Shown here one piece after another: positions 8,342-25,439 of a stretch of 37,368 nucleotides of DNA. The stretch is from IMG/VR virus record IMGVR_UViG_2537561825_000012; one strand, given 5' to 3'. A program made the position numbers and the translations under genes. The notes under the pieces are model-generated. The model saw only the letters and a list, made by a program, of their open reading frames with translations. It was not told the DNA's origin and did not search any database. The first letter of the stretch is position 1; each line of letters begins with the position of its first letter. Source of the DNA: a virus (Duplodnaviria; Heunggongvirae; Uroviricota; Caudoviricetes).

Positions 8342-9222
8342 ACACTCCTCGTCAGTATTCTGGCGGCCATTGCACTTAATTCCGGAGACATGCGGTTGAA
8401 TGCTGTGCCGGCGGCGTTAAGCTGCCCGGAAACGGTATCCAGAGCACCTGCAATATTTCTTTTGTCCACACCACTCAGCGCAGACTGTGCCTGCTGTACA
8501 TACGTGGCTGCTTCGCTGGCTGTTCTGGCCAGACTGATGGCATCGGGCATGGATTCAGAGAGTGCGTTAAACGCCGGAACACTTTTCCCCAGAGCCCCGG
8601 AGATATTACCCAGTCCGCTCATCAGCCCCGGCACACGGGTCAGTGCGACAACGGGGTTATCCTTCATTTTCTGTGTCACCCGAACGGCGCTGATAGTGGT
8701 CTGGAGTACAGACTGCGCCTGTTTCGCATAGTTGACGCCGTTGCGGATGAACTGCGCCACCCCTGAAGGTGAAGGTATGGCACCGGAGACCGCCCCGACA
8801 CCCGGGAGCTTCGTGCGTATTGCCGGTGGTTGCAGAGGATTTTTCGGGTCACCGGTGTATTCCCGGAGAGACACGGTGGCACTGACAGCCAGCACGTTGC
8901 CGGTACTGTCAGTCTGCTCGCTGGTTGCAGTCACATCGGTAATCACGAACCAGCCGCGATAGTCACCGTTGCCGAAGACCAGCGCCAGTGCCTGATGGGC
9001 TTTCATGGCTGTTCGCAGTCTCGCCAGCTCCACATCGGGTACACAATAATGCTGATGGAAAACCAGAGTTATCTGGATTTCGTCCAGCCTGTCGCCGACG
9101 AACTGCAGGCCAGGCTTACCCCCGATGCGGGCATGCTCCGCATAATCGACGCCGAACGTGGCCTCGAAGCCGTCCCAGTAGGTAATCAGCTCAAACTCAA
9201 TATCACCCAGTACGGCAAACAT
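8338..9222 (-). CDS. Tail/DNA-circulation protein (Mu N-like N-terminal domain)
   Basis: 294 aa ORF immediately downstream of the tape measure gene, overlapping its stop. Confidence 0.55.
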   Translation of the reverse strand: MFAVLGDIEFELITYWDGFEATFGVDYAEHARIGGKPGLQFVGDRLDEIQITLVFHQHYCVPDVELARLRTAMKAHQALALVFGNGDYRGWFVITDVTATSEQTDSTGNVLAVSATVSLREYTGDPKNPLQPPAIRTKLPGVGAVSGAIPSPSGVAQFIRNGVNYAKQAQSVLQTTISAVRVTQKMKDNPVVALTRVPGLMSGLGNISGALGKSVPAFNALSESMPDAISLARTASEAATYVQQAQSALSGVDKRNIAGALDTVSGQLNAAGTAFNRMSPELSAMAARILTRSV

Positions 9223-11912
9223 CAGCGGTACTCCTTACGTTGTTTCTGAGCCAGCAGACGCTCCAGCATTTTTTCCAGCTCATGCAGACTCATATTCAGG
9301 GCACCAGTCAGTCCTGCAGGCGCTGTGGTTTCCCTGCCATTGAGGAAAAACTGAGGATTAAAGCTGACCTGGATACCACCAGACGTTCCACCGCCGGTTG
9401 CAGCTGCACCACGGCCTGAATATCCGGCAGCCAGGATTTCAGGCGAGGGGATACGGGGAACATCCGGTGTCATCTCATTTGCCAGACGTTGCCCTGGTAA
9501 AATCGATGCCCGGGTGGAGAGCGGAATAGCGGGCATGGAAGACAAACTATTGATTACGGCTCCGATCGCATTTTTAGCAGACGACATAAACCCATTGATA
9601 TCGGGCAACGGCATACTGAAGCGAACACCTGAAGTGTTATCCCGTATTTCTGGCCCCTGGATGCTCACGGGCATTCTGGGGAGCAGTTCACTGGCCATTC
9701 GCTGCCCGGCCAGAGCTGCAAGCGGAGTGGTCCGCTGCAGGCCAATGGCGGCCCCCTGCGCGATATTGTCACCAAAGCCCATAAACACGCGGCTCGGCGA
9801 ATGAATGCCCAGCTTTTCGCTGACCCAGCCACTGATGCTGTCACCCATTCCGGTTACACTGGATTTGAGCGACTCCCATTTGTTTTTGATACCGTTAATC
9901 AGACCATCGACAAGATGGCCACCGAAGTCGGTAAACTTTGCCGGCAGATCAACACCAAGATATTTCAGCGCAGCTGCAAAGGCTTTATAGAGCAGGCCTG
10001 CCGGCGACCAGTTAATCAGTAACTTACCAATTCCCACAATGCCGCCGTTAAAGGCTTCCTGAATGTCTGCCCAGCGCTGTTTAAACCAGCCACTGACTGC
10101 CCCCCAGTTGCGGTAGATAAGGTAAGCTGCTGCCGCGACAGCGGTGATAACGAGACCGATGGGATTCATCATCAGCGCACGTCCAATCCAGAGAACAGCA
10201 CGTCCGGCGAGCATAATTCCGCGAACCAGCCCCCCGGAGAGCACGCCACTCAGTGTTCTGGCTCCTCTGGCGACGGCGCTAAATCCGGTCACCAGCCAGC
10301 GGAGCTTACCGCCTTGCCCCAGTGCGAGCGACAGACGAAGCCAGTTGGCCCGAAGTAAAACAGCATTTTTCCAGACACTTACAAAGGGGGAAATAAGGAG
10401 ATTCAGCCCCAGTTTGAGACCAACAGTCGCTATCTTAATCGCAAGGAGCGCACTGATGAGCTTAAAAGCCCCACTGACAAATTGCGGGTGAGTCGCTACC
10501 CAGTGTTTTGCCCCCTGAATGAGTGGAAGCAGTTCCTGAGTCAAAGAAATAAAAGATGGAGCTAATTGATCGCCCAGCGTAATTGCCAGATCGCGACTGC
10601 TGACCATAAGTGTTTTAGTGGCTTCAAGGGGAGATTTCAGCCGCTGATCATAAGCACTGGCAAGCAAATCGTTATCCGCAGCCCTGAGAGCACCGGCACG
10701 GATCTCTCGATATCTGTCCATGTTGGCCAGCATCGGGCGGATAAATGCCATGACCTGCATATCCGCGAACATATCGCCCAGACCAAAGTTTTTCGCCAGA
10801 GCCTGAAGTGCCTCATCTCTTGCCGTATCATTCTTTATTTTCATGGCTGATTTGAAGCCGGCCAGCGCTTCGGGGCTTTTGGCATTGAGGTAACGTTCTA
10901 TAACACTCAACATCCCTTCAATCGGAGAGATCCCCGCAGCTTTATAACTCGCAATAGATCCCTGCAAATCAATACCCAGATCAGCAAACTGTTTCTGAGT
11001 ATCGCGGGCAAAAATTTTGGTAAGAAAGTTTTTAAAATTATTGGCTGCTTCGTCGGTGGAACCTGCACCGATTTTTGCTATCTGGAGACTGGCCCCGATT
11101 TCAGCAACAGCCTCTTTTCCACTGGCAATCCCCGCCATCATTGGGGCCAGGGACTGCATCCACTTGACCTGATCCGGGATTTCAAATGACCCCTGGTCAC
11201 CGGCATAAGCCATAATATTCTGAACGGCACCAAAATCTCTGGCCGCACCTTTCAGGGAGTTTTGCCAGACTGCGGCCACTTTTGCCCAGTCCTGAGCAGA
11301 CGTGCGTGTTGCCGTTGCCGCGCGGGCAATATCCGGCATCAGAAAACCGATATCTGACACATTATCAATATTGTCGCTGATGAGTGAACCCACCGCCTCC
11401 TGCAGCTCATCCTGATACTGATTGTATTTAAGCGCCCAGCCTTTTATCTGTCCGGCAAGTCCATCCCGCGTTTTATTGTCATATTTTGCGGTGATCGACA
11501 TATCAATCATTTTGTCCTGAAAAGACATGGACTGCTGAACGGCAGGGGAAACCGTATGATAAACAGTCTGTGCCATGCCATACGCTTCAATCCCCTGACC
11601 ATACAGCGCCATGCGGTTAGCTTTCAGCGCATCACTGGTAGCGGATGCCGCTGACAGACGGCGCTGCTGGCGCTCAATTTGCTCCATGGTGCGGCTTACC
11701 CGCAGCAGCTCGCTGTTGAGATGCTGCATCCGGGAAGAACCCAGTTGACCATAACGTTCTGTTGCACGGGTTAAAGCGTTCTGACGTTCCTGCAGGCGGC
11801 GTGAGGTATCGCTCAGGGAATCAAGCGCACGGCGGGTACCGCTCATTGCAGAACGGAATGTGCTACCAATCATCCCGCCGATAACAACGCCGACTGAAAA
11901 CTGTCCCGACAT
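9222..11912 (-). CDS. Tail tape measure protein
   Basis: 896 aa, coiled-coil-rich N-terminus, Gly/Ala-rich hydrophobic middle; downstream of the frameshifted chaperone pair. Confidence 0.9.
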   Translation of the reverse strand: MSGQFSVGVVIGGMIGSTFRSAMSGTRRALDSLSDTSRRLQERQNALTRATERYGQLGSSRMQHLNSELLRVSRTMEQIERQQRRLSAASATSDALKANRMALYGQGIEAYGMAQTVYHTVSPAVQQSMSFQDKMIDMSITAKYDNKTRDGLAGQIKGWALKYNQYQDELQEAVGSLISDNIDNVSDIGFLMPDIARAATATRTSAQDWAKVAAVWQNSLKGAARDFGAVQNIMAYAGDQGSFEIPDQVKWMQSLAPMMAGIASGKEAVAEIGASLQIAKIGAGSTDEAANNFKNFLTKIFARDTQKQFADLGIDLQGSIASYKAAGISPIEGMLSVIERYLNAKSPEALAGFKSAMKIKNDTARDEALQALAKNFGLGDMFADMQVMAFIRPMLANMDRYREIRAGALRAADNDLLASAYDQRLKSPLEATKTLMVSSRDLAITLGDQLAPSFISLTQELLPLIQGAKHWVATHPQFVSGAFKLISALLAIKIATVGLKLGLNLLISPFVSVWKNAVLLRANWLRLSLALGQGGKLRWLVTGFSAVARGARTLSGVLSGGLVRGIMLAGRAVLWIGRALMMNPIGLVITAVAAAAYLIYRNWGAVSGWFKQRWADIQEAFNGGIVGIGKLLINWSPAGLLYKAFAAALKYLGVDLPAKFTDFGGHLVDGLINGIKNKWESLKSSVTGMGDSISGWVSEKLGIHSPSRVFMGFGDNIAQGAAIGLQRTTPLAALAGQRMASELLPRMPVSIQGPEIRDNTSGVRFSMPLPDINGFMSSAKNAIGAVINSLSSMPAIPLSTRASILPGQRLANEMTPDVPRIPSPEILAAGYSGRGAAATGGGTSGGIQVSFNPQFFLNGRETTAPAGLTGALNMSLHELEKMLERLLAQKQRKEYR

Positions 11913-11987
11913 AGTGGTTAACCTCCGGGGAAGGTGAAAAGACGTGAGGGGATAACGCAGAACAGCCGCTACTGGCGGCTGTCTGTA

Positions 11988-12245
11988 CTATGATTTGTCG
12001 CCGTACTCGCTTTTTATTTGCTCTTCAGCCTGCTCCAGCCACATCTCCAGATCGTCAGTATCGAGGGCATCAATCTCCCCCGGCTGAAACCGGAACCATC
12101 TCGCCAGCAGCCCCTGCGCCTGCGTCAGCGCCCTAGTTGCTCTCACCCATCCCCGTGATGAGCTGAAATCGTTTCTGTAACTGCAGGTAATCAGCCAGAT
12201 CCATATTGTCGAGATCTTCCGGGAGAAGACCAGTACTGCGGGCAA
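11988..12245 (-). CDS. Out-of-frame extension ORF of the tail assembly chaperone (E'-like), presumably expressed by programmed frameshift
   Basis: Open frame overlapping the 3' end of the chaperone ORF in the +1 (equivalently -2) frame, ending 75 bp before the tape measure start; the -1 frame is closed by stops. Confidence 0.55.
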   Translation of the reverse strand: MPAVLVFSRKISTIWIWLITCSYRNDFSSSRGWVRATRALTQAQGLLARWFRFQPGEIDALDTDDLEMWLEQAEEQIKSEYGDKS

Positions 12246-12405
12246 TCAGCGGTTCGTCCCAGTCTGCCGGGTTTTTGCTGATTTTGCGCACCTGCTTCAG
12301 GTCTTTTACCGTCAGGCGTTTCAGTTCAACCTGCTCAATTCTGGTGCCTGCAGCAGTGGTGAAGGGATAAGACAATTTAAAAGTATCGGATGGGGTCTGT
12401 GACAT
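12133..12405 (-). CDS. Tail assembly chaperone (P2 gpE-like)
   Basis: 90 aa ORF between tube and tape measure genes; C-terminal DYLQLQKRFQLI-type motif. Confidence 0.7.
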   Translation of the reverse strand: MSQTPSDTFKLSYPFTTAAGTRIEQVELKRLTVKDLKQVRKISKNPADWDEPLIARSTGLLPEDLDNMDLADYLQLQKRFQLITGMGESN

Positions 12406-12485
12406 GATTGTGCTCCTGTGTAAGTTCAGGGCAGTATGTCGGGAGAAGCGCGTGACGGATATTAAAGGAGATTAAGAAGAAGGGG

Positions 12486-12499
12486 CCGGAGCCCCTGTG
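12486..12499 (-). terminator. Candidate intrinsic terminator between tail tube and chaperone genes
   Basis: GGGGC-CGGA-GCCCC stem-loop followed on the minus strand by UUCUUCUUAAUCUCCUUU. Confidence 0.45.
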
Positions 12500-12502
12500 A
12501 TG

Positions 12503-12730
12503 TCAGCAAGTGCGAAACCCCTTGCAGTTACGCAGGAAAGCGATGAGAAGCGTCTTTCCCTCAGATTTGCCGGTGCCGGAGAACCAGTGGTCGGGAGGCT
12601 CCCATGCTTCAATCAAATCCGCCAGTTTGCGGGCCTTTGAACGTGTGCAGTCAATCGGGTCATTGGTTTTACGGGTATTAAAAAGGGTTTCCACCCCCCG
12701 GAATATCAAGGAGGGTAAACCACGTACCAT
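12503..12730 (-). CDS. Small hypothetical ORF between tube gene and terminator
   Basis: 75-aa ORF from an internal ATG; weak RBS; could be non-coding leader. Confidence 0.25.
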   Translation of the reverse strand: MVRGLPSLIFRGVETLFNTRKTNDPIDCTRSKARKLADLIEAWEPPDHWFSGTGKSEGKTLLIAFLRNCKGFRTC

Positions 12731-12787
12731 TTGACATGCCCAGTGCCGCACATCGTCTTCCTTTATCCGTCAGTTCAACACTCATCG

Positions 12788-13309
12788 TCAGCCCCCGATA
12801 TTGATACGGTAGTCAGTCAGTTGATCAACACCGCCGACCCGGAAGATGTTGGCCAGATAGTCCAGTTGCAGCAGCTCTTCACCATCCAGTACCTGTCTGA
12901 TATACGTGCAGGTGAAGCTACTGGAGAACTCGGCGTTCTCGTGCTGTTTGAACGTCCCCAGAGGGTTCTTCTTGAACATAATCGTCAGGAAGGTGACCAG
13001 CGGGATTTCGTCAATCAGCCCCTGCGAGCTGTAGCGCTGGACGCTGGAACGACACTGCAGTGCCAGCGACCTGTACGGGTTAGCGGCAGACAGCATCGCA
13101 TCGCGGTAAAAGCTGTTCCATTTGATTTCGCCTTCCAGTTTGTCAAAACCAGCCGGGAGTTCCACCTTACCCACCATCCCCAGCGCCTTGTGTTCCTGCA
13201 TAATCATGGAGACATCGGGGAGTTTAACTTCCTCAGCCCGTCCCAGCAGGTTAGTACCATCCAGATAGATGTTGGCATTCGTGATGCGGTTTATCTCAAT
13301 CTTTGACAT
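12788..13309 (-). CDS. Major tail tube protein (P2 FII-like)
   Basis: 173 aa; directly follows the sheath gene. Confidence 0.8.
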   Translation of the reverse strand: MSKIEINRITNANIYLDGTNLLGRAEEVKLPDVSMIMQEHKALGMVGKVELPAGFDKLEGEIKWNSFYRDAMLSAANPYRSLALQCRSSVQRYSSQGLIDEIPLVTFLTIMFKKNPLGTFKQHENAEFSSSFTCTYIRQVLDGEELLQLDYLANIFRVGGVDQLTDYRINIGG

Positions 13310-14736
13310 CAGTTGCCCCCTTTCAGGGTTAACAGGTATTCCGAGGTGATCTCAGTCTCAAACGTCAGTCGCTCCAGCGGCGGTGGTGGCGTATATTTGT
13401 AGCTCAGCAACAGGTGCCCGGCGGCCAGCTCCGTCTCCGGATTGCGGGCCGGATCAAACCAGCAACGGAAGCCCAGTACCGCACCATCACCAGTCATTTT
13501 GCGACCGTAGGCGTTGACCGACTCCGTCAGTGCATCAATCAGCGCCTGAGTAATCGGCATGTCGATGTACTGCTGGCTGAAATAACGAATGGACTCGTTG
13601 ATCACATCACCGGGGCGGCGAACGTTCTCAAAGTTACGCATATGGGTGACCGTTGGCCATGCTGCCGTCCGGTTACCCCACAGACGAAGGCCGCTGCCGT
13701 AACTGCTGAATACCGTGGTGATCCCCTGTTCGTTAAGCAGGTTTACCTCACTCTGCGGGTCATCAATCATCGCGGACAGCTGGCGCTCCACGCCGGTGAT
13801 CCCCAGAATCTCCTGATTGGAGGATGACCACCAGTAGCCCTTGTCCAGATCGACTCTGGCACGCAGACCTGCTGCACGCTGGCTGAGCGGCTCCAGACGC
13901 TCTGTGTTTGTCACCGGGTCATATACCTTCACATGCGGATAGCACAGACGGACGCGGTCGGAGCTGGTATTGAAGTTGATGGTGCCTTCCGGGCCACGAC
14001 CTGCCAGAGCCTGTGCAAAGGTGGTACCGACAGGCGCATCAATGTAGGTTACCGCGCCCAGCTTCTCTGCCATGGCGATAAGCTCAACTGCGACACTCTT
14101 CTGGGTGCAGAACACCGGCGCAATCAGAATTTTGGCGAAATAGCCGTACAGGTTGAAGCTGTCGTTAAGCAGCTTCATGCCGGTTCGGTTTCCGGCGCTG
14201 TTCACCCCGCCGATGATGTCCGCCGCAGTCACCTTCGACGGGTCCGCGTACTCATAGCTCACCTTCACGCTGCCACCGGCCTCAATAGCCTTGCCCAGGT
14301 TCGTGAGCACACCCGCCTGCGCATCAACACGGTAGTCCGTGTTCGCCGTGTGGGTGGTGCTGCCTTCACTGTTTTTCACCACCACATTAGCGACAACCGG
14401 ATGCGCCAGTCTGGCCTGCCCTGTCGATTTGTCAAAGGTAACCACCTCATCCTCGATCGCCGTTTTATGTTTCGCCGGGTCGAGGACGTTAATGACCAGA
14501 ACGGTGCCTGCACCATGGTCATAAATCGCATCCAGCGCCTGCGGAATGGTAAAGCCGGTGAACTGGCTGCCAAATGCCGCTGCGTCTTTCTCAGACAGGC
14601 ACTGTACCAGCGTATTGACATCCCCCATCGGGGCGGTACCAATCAGGCCAATAACGGCAGATTTCACCGTTTTAACCGGGCGGGCTCCGTTTTCCACCTC
14701 AATGGTTTCGGGACCATGCAGATAGTTAGCTGCCAT
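13309..14736 (-). CDS. Tail sheath protein (P2 FI / Mu L-like)
   Basis: 475 aa; sheath-tube gene pair. Confidence 0.85.
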   Translation of the reverse strand: MAANYLHGPETIEVENGARPVKTVKSAVIGLIGTAPMGDVNTLVQCLSEKDAAAFGSQFTGFTIPQALDAIYDHGAGTVLVINVLDPAKHKTAIEDEVVTFDKSTGQARLAHPVVANVVVKNSEGSTTHTANTDYRVDAQAGVLTNLGKAIEAGGSVKVSYEYADPSKVTAADIIGGVNSAGNRTGMKLLNDSFNLYGYFAKILIAPVFCTQKSVAVELIAMAEKLGAVTYIDAPVGTTFAQALAGRGPEGTINFNTSSDRVRLCYPHVKVYDPVTNTERLEPLSQRAAGLRARVDLDKGYWWSSSNQEILGITGVERQLSAMIDDPQSEVNLLNEQGITTVFSSYGSGLRLWGNRTAAWPTVTHMRNFENVRRPGDVINESIRYFSQQYIDMPITQALIDALTESVNAYGRKMTGDGAVLGFRCWFDPARNPETELAAGHLLLSYKYTPPPPLERLTFETEITSEYLLTLKGGN

Positions 14737-24715: not shown

Positions 24716-25439
24716 AACTGCTGCCTCCCCATGTGAGATATCGCGGTGCCAGTTCGCGCAGGATGCGCTGCGGATAATGGCGGTTCTCCCGCCAGCTGGC
24801 CGCATTGCGTCCGGCATTCACCGTGGCGACATGTCCGAACCAGCGGGTGCTGTCCAGACCTTTCTGTGATGCAAGCCGCCTGTCCCGTTGTACCCAGCCC
24901 AGACCACCGTTATAGCCCGACAGTGTCATGGCCATACGCTCGCAGTCACTGGCGGCGCTGACACGCTGCCACAGCCAGCGGTCATAGCTGACCAGCGCCC
25001 GGATAGCCCATGCCGGATTAAACGGCTCACGACTGCTCAGCATCGGTATCAACTGGCTTATCCAGTCGGCAGTGGCAGGCATGAACTGCGCCAGTCCCTG
25101 AGCGCCAGCCGGCGAGATCGCATCAGGTCGCCAGCCGCTTTCCTGATGCAGTTGCGCGGCGAAATCGGCCACCGGCGCAGACAGTCCCCATTCAAGCCGG
25201 GCATTACGGATCACATCATCGCGATACTGCAGCGCAGCCTGCGGAGGTTGTGCTGCGCATGCCTGGCTGAAAAAGCCGCCACACCAGAGCAACATTGCGA
25301 CAAAGAATACCCATGCCATATGAACCAGAAAGGTCCCGGCGCGGACTGACAGGCGTTCGGTTCTGATGAAGACCCGAAAGGCTTCGAAAGCCAGTTTCAG
25401 GGACATGCATACAATCCAGGTGATCTGCGGCCAGTTCAT
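24699..25439 (-). CDS. Endolysin, lytic transglycosylase (SLT domain) with N-terminal signal/SAR-like segment
   Basis: SLT motif QLHQESGWRPDAISPAGAQGLAQFMPAT; ATG at 25439 lies 4 nt after the holin stop (alternative ATG at 25319). Confidence 0.8.
   Translation of the reverse strand: MNWPQITWIVCMSLKLAFEAFRVFIRTERLSVRAGTFLVHMAWVFFVAMLLWCGGFFSQACAAQPPQAALQYRDDVIRNARLEWGLSAPVADFAAQLHQESGWRPDAISPAGAQGLAQFMPATADWISQLIPMLSSREPFNPAWAIRALVSYDRWLWQRVSAASDCERMAMTLSGYNGGLGWVQRDRRLASQKGLDSTRWFGHVATVNAGRNAASWRENRHYPQRILRELAPRYLTWGGSSCVASG

Follow-up and report, generated by a model that had tools for sequence, protein, structure and literature searches.

A +1-frame extension of the tail assembly chaperone gene in BcepMu-like prophages and a candidate UUU_C slip site

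Tail chaperone recoding and the locus under study

Frameshifting in tail assembly chaperone genes has its classic case in the lambda G/GT pair, and Xu, Hendrix and Duda reportedly described it in 2004 as a general feature of tail chaperones. Within the family PF10109 (Phage_TAC_7), whose Pfam text reads 'tail assembly chaperone proteins E, or 41 or 14' (P2 gpE, Mu gp41), four arrangements other than +1 were found: a -1 shift on T_TTT_TTG in P2 and Wolbachia WO, -1 on G_GGT_TTT in Vibrio phage Valp1, -1 on G_GGA_AAG in Pasteurella phage AFS-2018a, and -2 in Mu, where the GenBank record of the homologous gene gives a 'verified -2 translational frameshift' at CGG_GGG_CGA. The heptamer of AFS-2018a, a relative of the present gene, is that of lambda. 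The slip sites of P2, WO and Valp1 (verified or evident) involve a Phe codon that lies in the alignment about three residues from the column of Phe80 of the chaperone described here. Across phages, tail chaperone recoding is known in the -1, -2 and +1 directions (PMC2628397, PMC5009743), with 350 forward (+1) vs 2,368 backward shifts annotated in actinophage chaperone genes (PMC10885494). The kind of recoding considered here is well known in tail chaperones; the direction is the less common one, and at this locus it is unannotated. A first-pass annotation, made from the sequence alone, had set the +1 (or -2) geometry of this locus against the usual -1; the direction it gave was correct, but the geometry is less unusual than its title suggested, non -1 chaperone shifts having already been documented.

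The window, i.e. the whole stretch of 37,368 nt that was analysed (IMG/VR record IMGVR_UViG_2537561825_000012), is part of a BcepMu-like prophage whose tail module is of the P2 type, and is not strictly Mu-like. It showed 99.4 % identity over 1.7 kb to Escherichia phage PhiKM (Bcepmuvirus) and about 85 % to Klebsiella phage KP12, and 641 of 5,426 complete E. coli genomes (~12 %) contained the same segment. The order on the minus strand was sheath, tube, small ORF, chaperone, tape measure and gpU-like gene, which places the chaperone gene between the tail tube and tape measure genes, the position characteristic of the family. The neighbouring genes were as follows.

13309-14736, minus strand: tail sheath gene (Pfam PF04984 and PF17482)
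12788-13309, minus strand: tail tube gene (PF04985, E=2.9e-53)
9222..11912, minus strand: tape measure protein gene (PF10145, E=1.7e-20), directly downstream of the chaperone locus
9222-8338, minus strand: gpU-like gene, downstream of the tape measure gene

The chaperone locus itself comprised the following elements.

12413..12417, minus strand: Shine-Dalgarno sequence AGGAG, 7 nt 5' of the chaperone ATG (read from the sequence)
12133..12405, minus strand: short-form tail assembly chaperone, gpE-like, 90 aa (ATG 12405-12403, TAG 12135-12133)
12246..12248, minus strand: last +1-frame stop (TGA) 5' of the extension, before which no shift could lie in this copy
12133..12165, minus strand: dual-coded overlap, consisting of the last 10 short-form codons and stop, with the predicted long-form linker in the +1 frame
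11988..12164, minus strand: +1-frame extension of 58 codons (SSSRGWVRATRALTQAQGLLARWFRFQPGEIDALDTDDLEMWLEQAEEQIKSEYGDKS) followed by TAG 11990-11988

PF10109 matched the 90 aa ORF over residues 8-82 (profile positions 1-76 of 79) with E=1.9e-22 and 79.5 bits, the cut-off being 25, and the ORF was also assigned to phrog_166 (tail protein, E=5.5e-30). The first-pass annotation had described a gpE-like ORF overlapped by a frame displaced by 1 nt in the 3' direction and open to 11988, with the -1 frame closed in the overlap, and both features were present. Codons of the chaperone ORF start at 0 mod 3 and those of the second frame at 2 mod 3, i.e. 1 nt further 3' on the minus strand; the second frame is therefore +1 (equivalent to -2), and it is open from 12245 to the TAG at 11990-11988. 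In the -1 frame, two stops interrupt the overlap (12193-12191 and 12145-12143) and a third follows just beyond it (12127-12125). A gap of 75 nt separates the end of the extension from the tape measure ATG, and no start codon is conserved in the +1 frame. As in the lambda G/GT arrangement, an overlapping second frame that lacks a start prolongs the first ORF toward the tape measure gene.

Conservation and coding character of the extension

Conservation of the geometry was assessed in a close set of 98 loci from species-representative genomes, IMG/VR and phage records, and in a wider set to which Salmonella-, Ralstonia-, Pseudomonas Komp- and Burkholderia BcepMu-type subclades were added, down to ~35 % identity. 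The total was 268 loci, or 146 unique sequences, in five subclades including the enteric type of the window. The extension was in the +1 frame in 96 of the 98 close loci and in 266 of the 268 loci over the five subclades, far beyond chance expectation, which bears out the earlier reading of +1 rather than -1 geometry. The two exceptions (L018 and L095), in which the extension is in frame, each have a single-base deletion, at different positions, and are treated as mutants or errors. A sequencing error restoring a -1 geometry is excluded by the recurrence of the +1 arrangement, and also by a finished E. coli chromosome that carries the locus with 100 % identity (hit H22). Database proteins of 138 aa were considered as natural fusions and rejected, as their frame junctions fall at differing homopolymers; all except one (P0004) were found only in Logan assemblies, and these proteins are probably indel errors that give no evidence of fusion.

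The extension was matched by phrog_8286 (E=2.7e-34), and its peptide was retained down to ~50-60 % identity in Salmonella, Ralstonia and Pseudomonas elements (tblastn). The C-terminal 33 residues of the +1-frame peptide are the part that resembles the P2 E' tail.

12009..12107, minus strand: core of the extension, P2 E' tail-like (PF06528, Phage_P2_GpE)

The match to PF06528 covered profile positions 4-36 of 37 and scored 16.4-18.3 bits (E=0.0066-0.0016), which falls short of the cut-off (23). BLASTP against P2 E+E' gave 30 % identity over 27 aa, and hhalign of a profile of five predicted fusions against P2 E+E' was collinear over the full length (E=0.0014). From these comparisons the conserved extension is probably homologous to the E' tail of P2.

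The reading frame under constraint was followed through the overlap. In an alignment of 65 unique close sequences, variation beyond ~12150 sits at wobble positions of the +1 frame (e.g. GCG/GCA, CAG/CAA, GGG/GGC/GGT/GGA and AGA/AGG) and is non-synonymous in the zero frame. Comparison of codon with amino-acid diversity, counted from the TTT codon of Phe80, revealed zero-frame constraint to about +21 nt and +1-frame constraint from about +16 nt, whilst the zero-frame tail past about +24 nt was unconstrained. In diverged relatives the extension was 82-98 % conserved (64 % in Brenneria loci) vs 67-88 % for the chaperone domain. Judged from this diversity, the extension is coding sequence under protein-level selection. 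The length of the short form varied from 89 to 113 aa: most relatives have 102-113 aa, the present copy has 90 aa, and three loci belonging to two other subclades have ~89 aa. Such free placing of the zero-frame stops and the unconstrained zero-frame tail are as expected if the long form exits the frame earlier.

The downstream ORF could instead be a small gene in its own right ('GpE family phage tail protein') that is initiated independently, in which case no frameshift would be needed. PGAP annotates a CDS of 46 aa (12128-11988) in the identical E. coli copy and one of 52 aa in another, and a TTG opens the mechanically derived ORF at 12245. The PGAP start at 12128 is, however, a CTG inside the conserved peptide, and the +1-frame constraint starts 5' of the annotated starts. 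No ATG, GTG or TTG precedes the conserved Trp in the +1 ORF of 70 of the 144 unique relatives, and a start with any Shine-Dalgarno-like motif was present in only seven of the 144. The extension is seldom predicted by gene callers (19 clusters), which then disagree on its length (32-86 aa), and the E' of P2, its probable homologue, is produced solely in fused form. A separately initiated gene is thus regarded as quite improbable.

Location of the shift within the overlap

A site of conserved position was assumed to be bounded, in every lineage, by the last +1-frame stop on its 5' side and the first zero-frame stop on its 3' side. A +1-frame TGA occupies -11 to -9 nt relative to the Phe codon throughout the Ralstonia subclade and in the majority of the Pseudomonas one, where the +1 frame opens only at -8 nt. 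The zero-frame stop is at +33 nt in the window and at +27 nt in L203 and, in a second subclade, in L244 and L269. The shift window permitted across subclades is therefore the 35 nt from -8 to +27 nt around the Phe codon, and TTTC was the only motif inside it that was common to all subclades. The candidate site and the codon before it are given below.

12165..12168, minus strand: proposed +1 slip site UUU_C, formed by Phe80 TTT (12168-12166) and the following C (12165)
12169..12171, minus strand: CGA, a rare Arg codon, directly 5' of the slip codon

In the window, CGA_UUU_C (12171-12165) contains the sole Phe codon of the overlap, in frame and with the +1 frame open, and has the form UUU_Y. Phe80 was encoded by TTT in 144 of 144 unique +1-frame sequences, and the next base was C in all 144 in spite of a following residue that may be Q, H, L or R; these counts overstate independence, as the sequences are phylogenetically related and represent about five independent subclades. 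For comparison, codon use was examined in 13 alignment columns in which the residue was at least 90 % conserved, Met and Trp being excluded, and the other 12 columns all varied synonymously (codon entropy 0.54-1.82 bits). Moreover, TTT is the minority Phe codon (roughly 0.31-0.36) in the three GC-rich subclades. The Phe residue is itself conserved, so that part of the conservation is at the protein level; the choice of codon and the C that follows are additional to it.

Around the site, window- and Salmonella-type loci have CGA_TTT_CAG, Ralstonia-type loci CGA_TTT_CTG and Pseudomonas-type loci GTG_TTT_CGG, whilst BcepMu has TCC_TTT_CGC. Pseudomonas phage Bise, which was found independently, has GCA_TTT_CAA with a +1 extension. 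The codon 5' of TTT was CGA in 113 and CGG in one of 114 unique +1-frame sequences of the window-type, Salmonella and Ralstonia subclades, and was variable in the Pseudomonas and BcepMu subclades. The five +1-frame codons that lie between UUC and the conserved Gly-Trp were poorly conserved.

Other positions in the overlap were considered. The window subclade taken alone would fit a shift at any point from 12168 to ~12152, and in this subclade the switch from zero- to +1-frame constraint falls at +15 to +21 nt after TTT, where the G run ACG_GGG_AUG_G (12156-12147) might support either a Mu-like -2 shift or a +1 movement of tRNA-Gly from GGG to GGA. The homologous Mu gene has a verified -2 shift on a G5 run, and GGGG is present in the window. 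The G4 is confined to a few alleles, however; most close relatives have ACT_GGG_CTG, one (L019) has GGC_CTG and the Salmonella subclade has AGC_ATG, and -2 re-pairing would meet CGG or CTG, which are mismatched. The other subclades share no such motif in the permitted window, and no homopolymeric run is conserved inside it. Recoding elsewhere in the overlap, for which this run is the candidate, is considered unlikely. At UUU_C itself a -2 movement is impossible by re-pairing, the -2 codons being GAU, UGU or CCU.

Two further candidates were rejected. A conserved G5 run that resembles the Mu site (CCGGGGGAG, ~12093-12085) lies 3' of the zero-frame stop in the 90 aa and 104 aa alleles and varies at wobble positions of the +1 frame, as coding sequence rather than a slip site would. 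In the 111 aa allele, the same run would fall just before the zero-frame stop. A prfB-like shift at the zero-frame stop was discarded because the stops and the codons preceding them differ among alleles, leaving no re-pairing, and because +1-frame constraint begins upstream. A P2-type -1 shift on T_TTT_TTG was not indicated either, the -1 frame being stopped and the heptamer absent.

Productive transcriptional slippage generally needs a run of about seven or more A or T residues. The longest homopolymers at conserved positions of the overlap are T3 or G4, and RNA polymerase slippage yielding +1-frame mRNAs, although a known alternative route to frameshifted products (PMC5009743), is barely credible here in place of a ribosomal shift.

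The locus might also be decayed or mis-sequenced, with the TAG at 12135-12133 a nonsense mutation in a 111 aa gene and no proper pair. PGAP marks the identical copy as a pseudogene ('internal stop'), the neighbouring small ORF of the same copy has a 1 nt insertion in a G run, and most close relatives have CAG in place of TAG. Against this, the 90 aa protein was found on 914 contigs, the TAG allele is seen both where the neighbouring ORF has the G6 insertion and where it does not, and two independent lineages have zero-frame stops that are earlier still (+27 nt). The zero-frame sequence beyond about +24 nt is in any case unconstrained, and the TAG lies 33 nt 3' of the proposed slip site, so that the long form would be unaffected by it. 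Decay or error is consequently judged highly improbable, and the pseudogene label given by PGAP to the window allele is probably wrong.

Taken with the geometry and the invariance of UUU_C, it is likely that the locus is a chaperone pair whose long form would arise by a +1 slip on UUU_C at 12168-12165. The first-pass annotation had called for either +1/-2 recoding or an independent start for the second ORF; recoding into the +1 frame is upheld, whereas a Mu-type -2 shift and independent initiation found no support.

Proposed product, public annotation and comparison with known systems

According to the proposed mechanism, the majority of ribosomes would synthesize the 90 aa chaperone and terminate at TAG 12135-12133, whilst a minority would shift by +1 at CGA_UUU_C and continue in the +1 frame to 11988. 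Phe-tRNA with anticodon GAA reads UUU through a G:U wobble pair and UUC through G:C, and re-pairing one base forward at UUU_C would therefore be favourable. Either the peptidyl-tRNA-Phe would re-pair from UUU to the overlapping UUC, or Phe-tRNA would bind UUC out of frame; the resulting protein would be the same. The predicted fusion of 138 aa would consist of chaperone residues 1-80 followed by SSSRGWVRATRALTQAQGLLARWFRFQPGEIDALDTDDLEMWLEQAEEQIKSEYGDKS, i.e. a short variable linker and the conserved E'-like C-terminal domain, and a +1 shift at UUU_C would give the junction ...LQKRFSSSRGWVR... (LQKR-F-SSSR-GWVR). If lambda gpG/gpGT and P2 E/E+E' are a guide, the N-terminal part common to both forms may form a coat on the tape measure protein, and the long form, the rarer of the two, may recruit the tail tube or sheath.

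The codons that would occupy the A site after UUU (CAG, CUG, CGG and CGC) are none of them slow or rare in the zero frame. There is no stop nearby and no internal Shine-Dalgarno sequence at the UUU_C site, and the downstream RNA folded no better than shuffled sequence (z = -0.52). Rfam gave no match, no tRNA was found in the window, no NCBIfam model matched and no solved structure was related by sequence. Since no slow codon, stop, Shine-Dalgarno sequence or RNA structure is present at the site, the efficiency of the slip is probably low, of the order of a few percent. UUU_Ynn has been described as especially prone to +1 shifts in bacteria, apparently including the YopN-TyeA site, and the influenza PA-X cassette is UCC_UUU_CGU (PMC5009743). 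A stimulatory role for the conserved CGA 5' of UUU is speculation; it might act through weak I:A wobble pairing while in the P or E site, or might make it easier for Phe-tRNA to bind UUC out of frame.

The fused long chaperone was unannotated in the PhiKM, KP12, BcepMu (GenBank and RefSeq), vB_E274, Komp_PAO1_1 and Bise records. PGAP splits the locus into a 'phage tail assembly protein' and a 'GpE family' fragment without a start. The record of BcepMu, the type phage of the genus, gives gp42 and gp43 as a -1 'G/T' pair. In that genome gp41 corresponds to the chaperone domain and gp42 to the ORF of the +1-frame extension; gp43 is in the frame of gp41, downstream of the gp41 stop, and newer related records annotate its region as a small ORF on the opposite strand. 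As read from homology and the frames, the BcepMu pairing would be gp41 with gp42, via a +1 shift at UCC_UUU_CGC, and not gp42 with gp43. No earlier description of a +1 shift in BcepMu-like phages was found in the literature searched, which is not proof of absence.

A corrected annotation would reach relatives in Salmonella, Pseudomonas, Ralstonia and Burkholderia besides those in E. coli. The site would add a natural and widely conserved bacterial +1 shift on UUU_C alone, unaided by a stop, a Shine-Dalgarno sequence or RNA structure, and, as other members of the family use -1 or -2 shifts at nearly the same place, it would offer a convenient system for the determinants of direction and efficiency. 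The general picture of tail assembly is unchanged, and the locus is of moderate interest to specialists in recoding and phage annotation.

Among known systems, lambda gpG/gpGT follows the same logic, with a shared N-terminus, a long form made at low frequency and a gene just 5' of the tape measure gene. The lambda shift is -1 at G_GGA_AAG and thus differs in direction; there is no sequence similarity to G/T, and the tail here is contractile. The E. coli argI error site, Yersinia YopN-TyeA and influenza PA-X have the same minimal motif, a Phe UUU followed by a pyrimidine at which tRNA-Phe can also pair with the overlapping UUC, and a 3' stop codon is unnecessary at these UUU_Y sites, as it would be at the present one; UCC_UUU_CGC of the BcepMu subclade may be compared with UCC_UUU_CGU of PA-X. 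These are unrelated genes with different stimulators, and a CGA 5' of UUU has not been described in them.

[quoted passage not shown]

P2 gpE/gpE+E' combines a PF10109 domain, as here, with the E' tail (PF06528) that the present extension resembles, in the same place, between FII (tube) and T (tape measure), and its products of 91 and 142 aa compare with 90 and 138 aa here. The P2 E domain and the present chaperone share 18 % identity (alignment A4). The P2 slip site is also on a Phe TTT, within about three residues of the same alignment position, and downstream RNA structure is absent in P2 (PMC3091744) as it is here. The P2 shift is -1 on T_TTT_TTG and experimentally verified, whereas the shift proposed here would be +1 on the tetranucleotide UUU_C, with no X_XXY_YYZ heptamer. 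It is conceivable, as a tentative reading that may well be wrong, that the C-terminal end of the PF10109 domain is an ancient, positionally fixed recoding spot on a Phe UUU at which lineages have switched direction, with CGA added as a hitherto undescribed stimulator in the enteric and Ralstonia branches; if so, a minimal, structure-free +1 signal would have been kept for assembly stoichiometry. In the alignment, the BcepMu-like clade keeps the position and the UUU codon of P2, WO and Valp1, with the predicted shift in the opposite direction.

The TAG allele and the +1-frame extension

At 12133-12135, the window carries TAG, whereas most near-identical copies carry CAG, giving a 111-aa allele of the chaperone gene; for this reason the window allele is classified by PGAP as a pseudogene with an 'internal stop'. 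The 21 extra zero-frame residues of the 111-aa allele are under no selection, and the pseudogene label on the TAG allele is therefore probably an annotation artefact.

The extension (11988-12130 in the window) was compared with loci L012-L019 and L073-L099. In diverged relatives, its identity was 82-98 %, compared with 67-88 % for the chaperone domain, the exception being the Brenneria loci, in which the extension was 64 % identical. The markedly better conservation of the extension suggests either that its interaction with a partner is under tight constraint or that this segment has recombined. Chaperone and extension lie in one frame in two relatives, L018 (Apirhabdus apintestini CP138906.1) and L095 (IMG/VR UViG_2734481909_000003), because of a one-base deletion in each, at differing positions; these could be sequencing errors or natural mutants making only the long form.

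The proposed slip codon, UUU, is adjoined on its 5' side by the rare Arg codon CGA (12169-12171). Comparison of this position in the window with L100, L101 and L219-L270, among other related loci, revealed 113 CGA and one CGG across three subclades (enteric, Salmonella and Ralstonia); the Pseudomonas and Burkholderia subclades do not conserve CGA. The near-invariance of this codon in the first three is not explained by protein coding alone.

Features flanking the chaperone locus

Three minus-strand features lie on either side of the chaperone gene and its extension.

12694-12699, minus strand: G run inside the small ORF 12503-12785
12481-12496, minus strand: terminator-like element, a GC-rich hairpin with a T-rich tract after it, in the interval from the small ORF to the chaperone gene
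11962-11983, minus strand: 8-bp hairpin (ACAGCCGC / GCGGCTGT) in the 75-nt gap from the extension stop to the tape measure start

The G run is G6 in the window, compared with G5 in phages PhiKM and KP12, and the extra G breaks a conserved 93-aa ORF in the tube-chaperone interval into 35 and 82 aa. In an identical copy from E. coli EcPF7, this ORF is labelled 'frameshifted' by PGAP. Among the loci compared, G6 always occurred with the TAG allele, which was also found with G5.

The terminator-like hairpin falls within what is expected to be a single late tail operon. The 8-bp hairpin lacks a T tract; its stem is identical in KP12, whilst the loop differs (CAGTA versus CCCTC).

Comparison with BcepMu

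The enteric clade lacks the gap that holds 'gp43' in BcepMu, and in which newer related records annotate a small opposite-strand ORF.

BcepMu 24977-25363 (L004 / L272): 'gp43' region
L273, 1163-1405, minus strand: annotated small ORF
L274, 1082-1372, minus strand: annotated small ORF

By eye only, the reverse strand of this gap looked hydrophobic in a Ralstonia locus. The BcepMu record annotates 'gp43' as a product of gp42 by -1 slippage; its frame is that of gp41, and its GC-rich composition is of the out-of-frame type.
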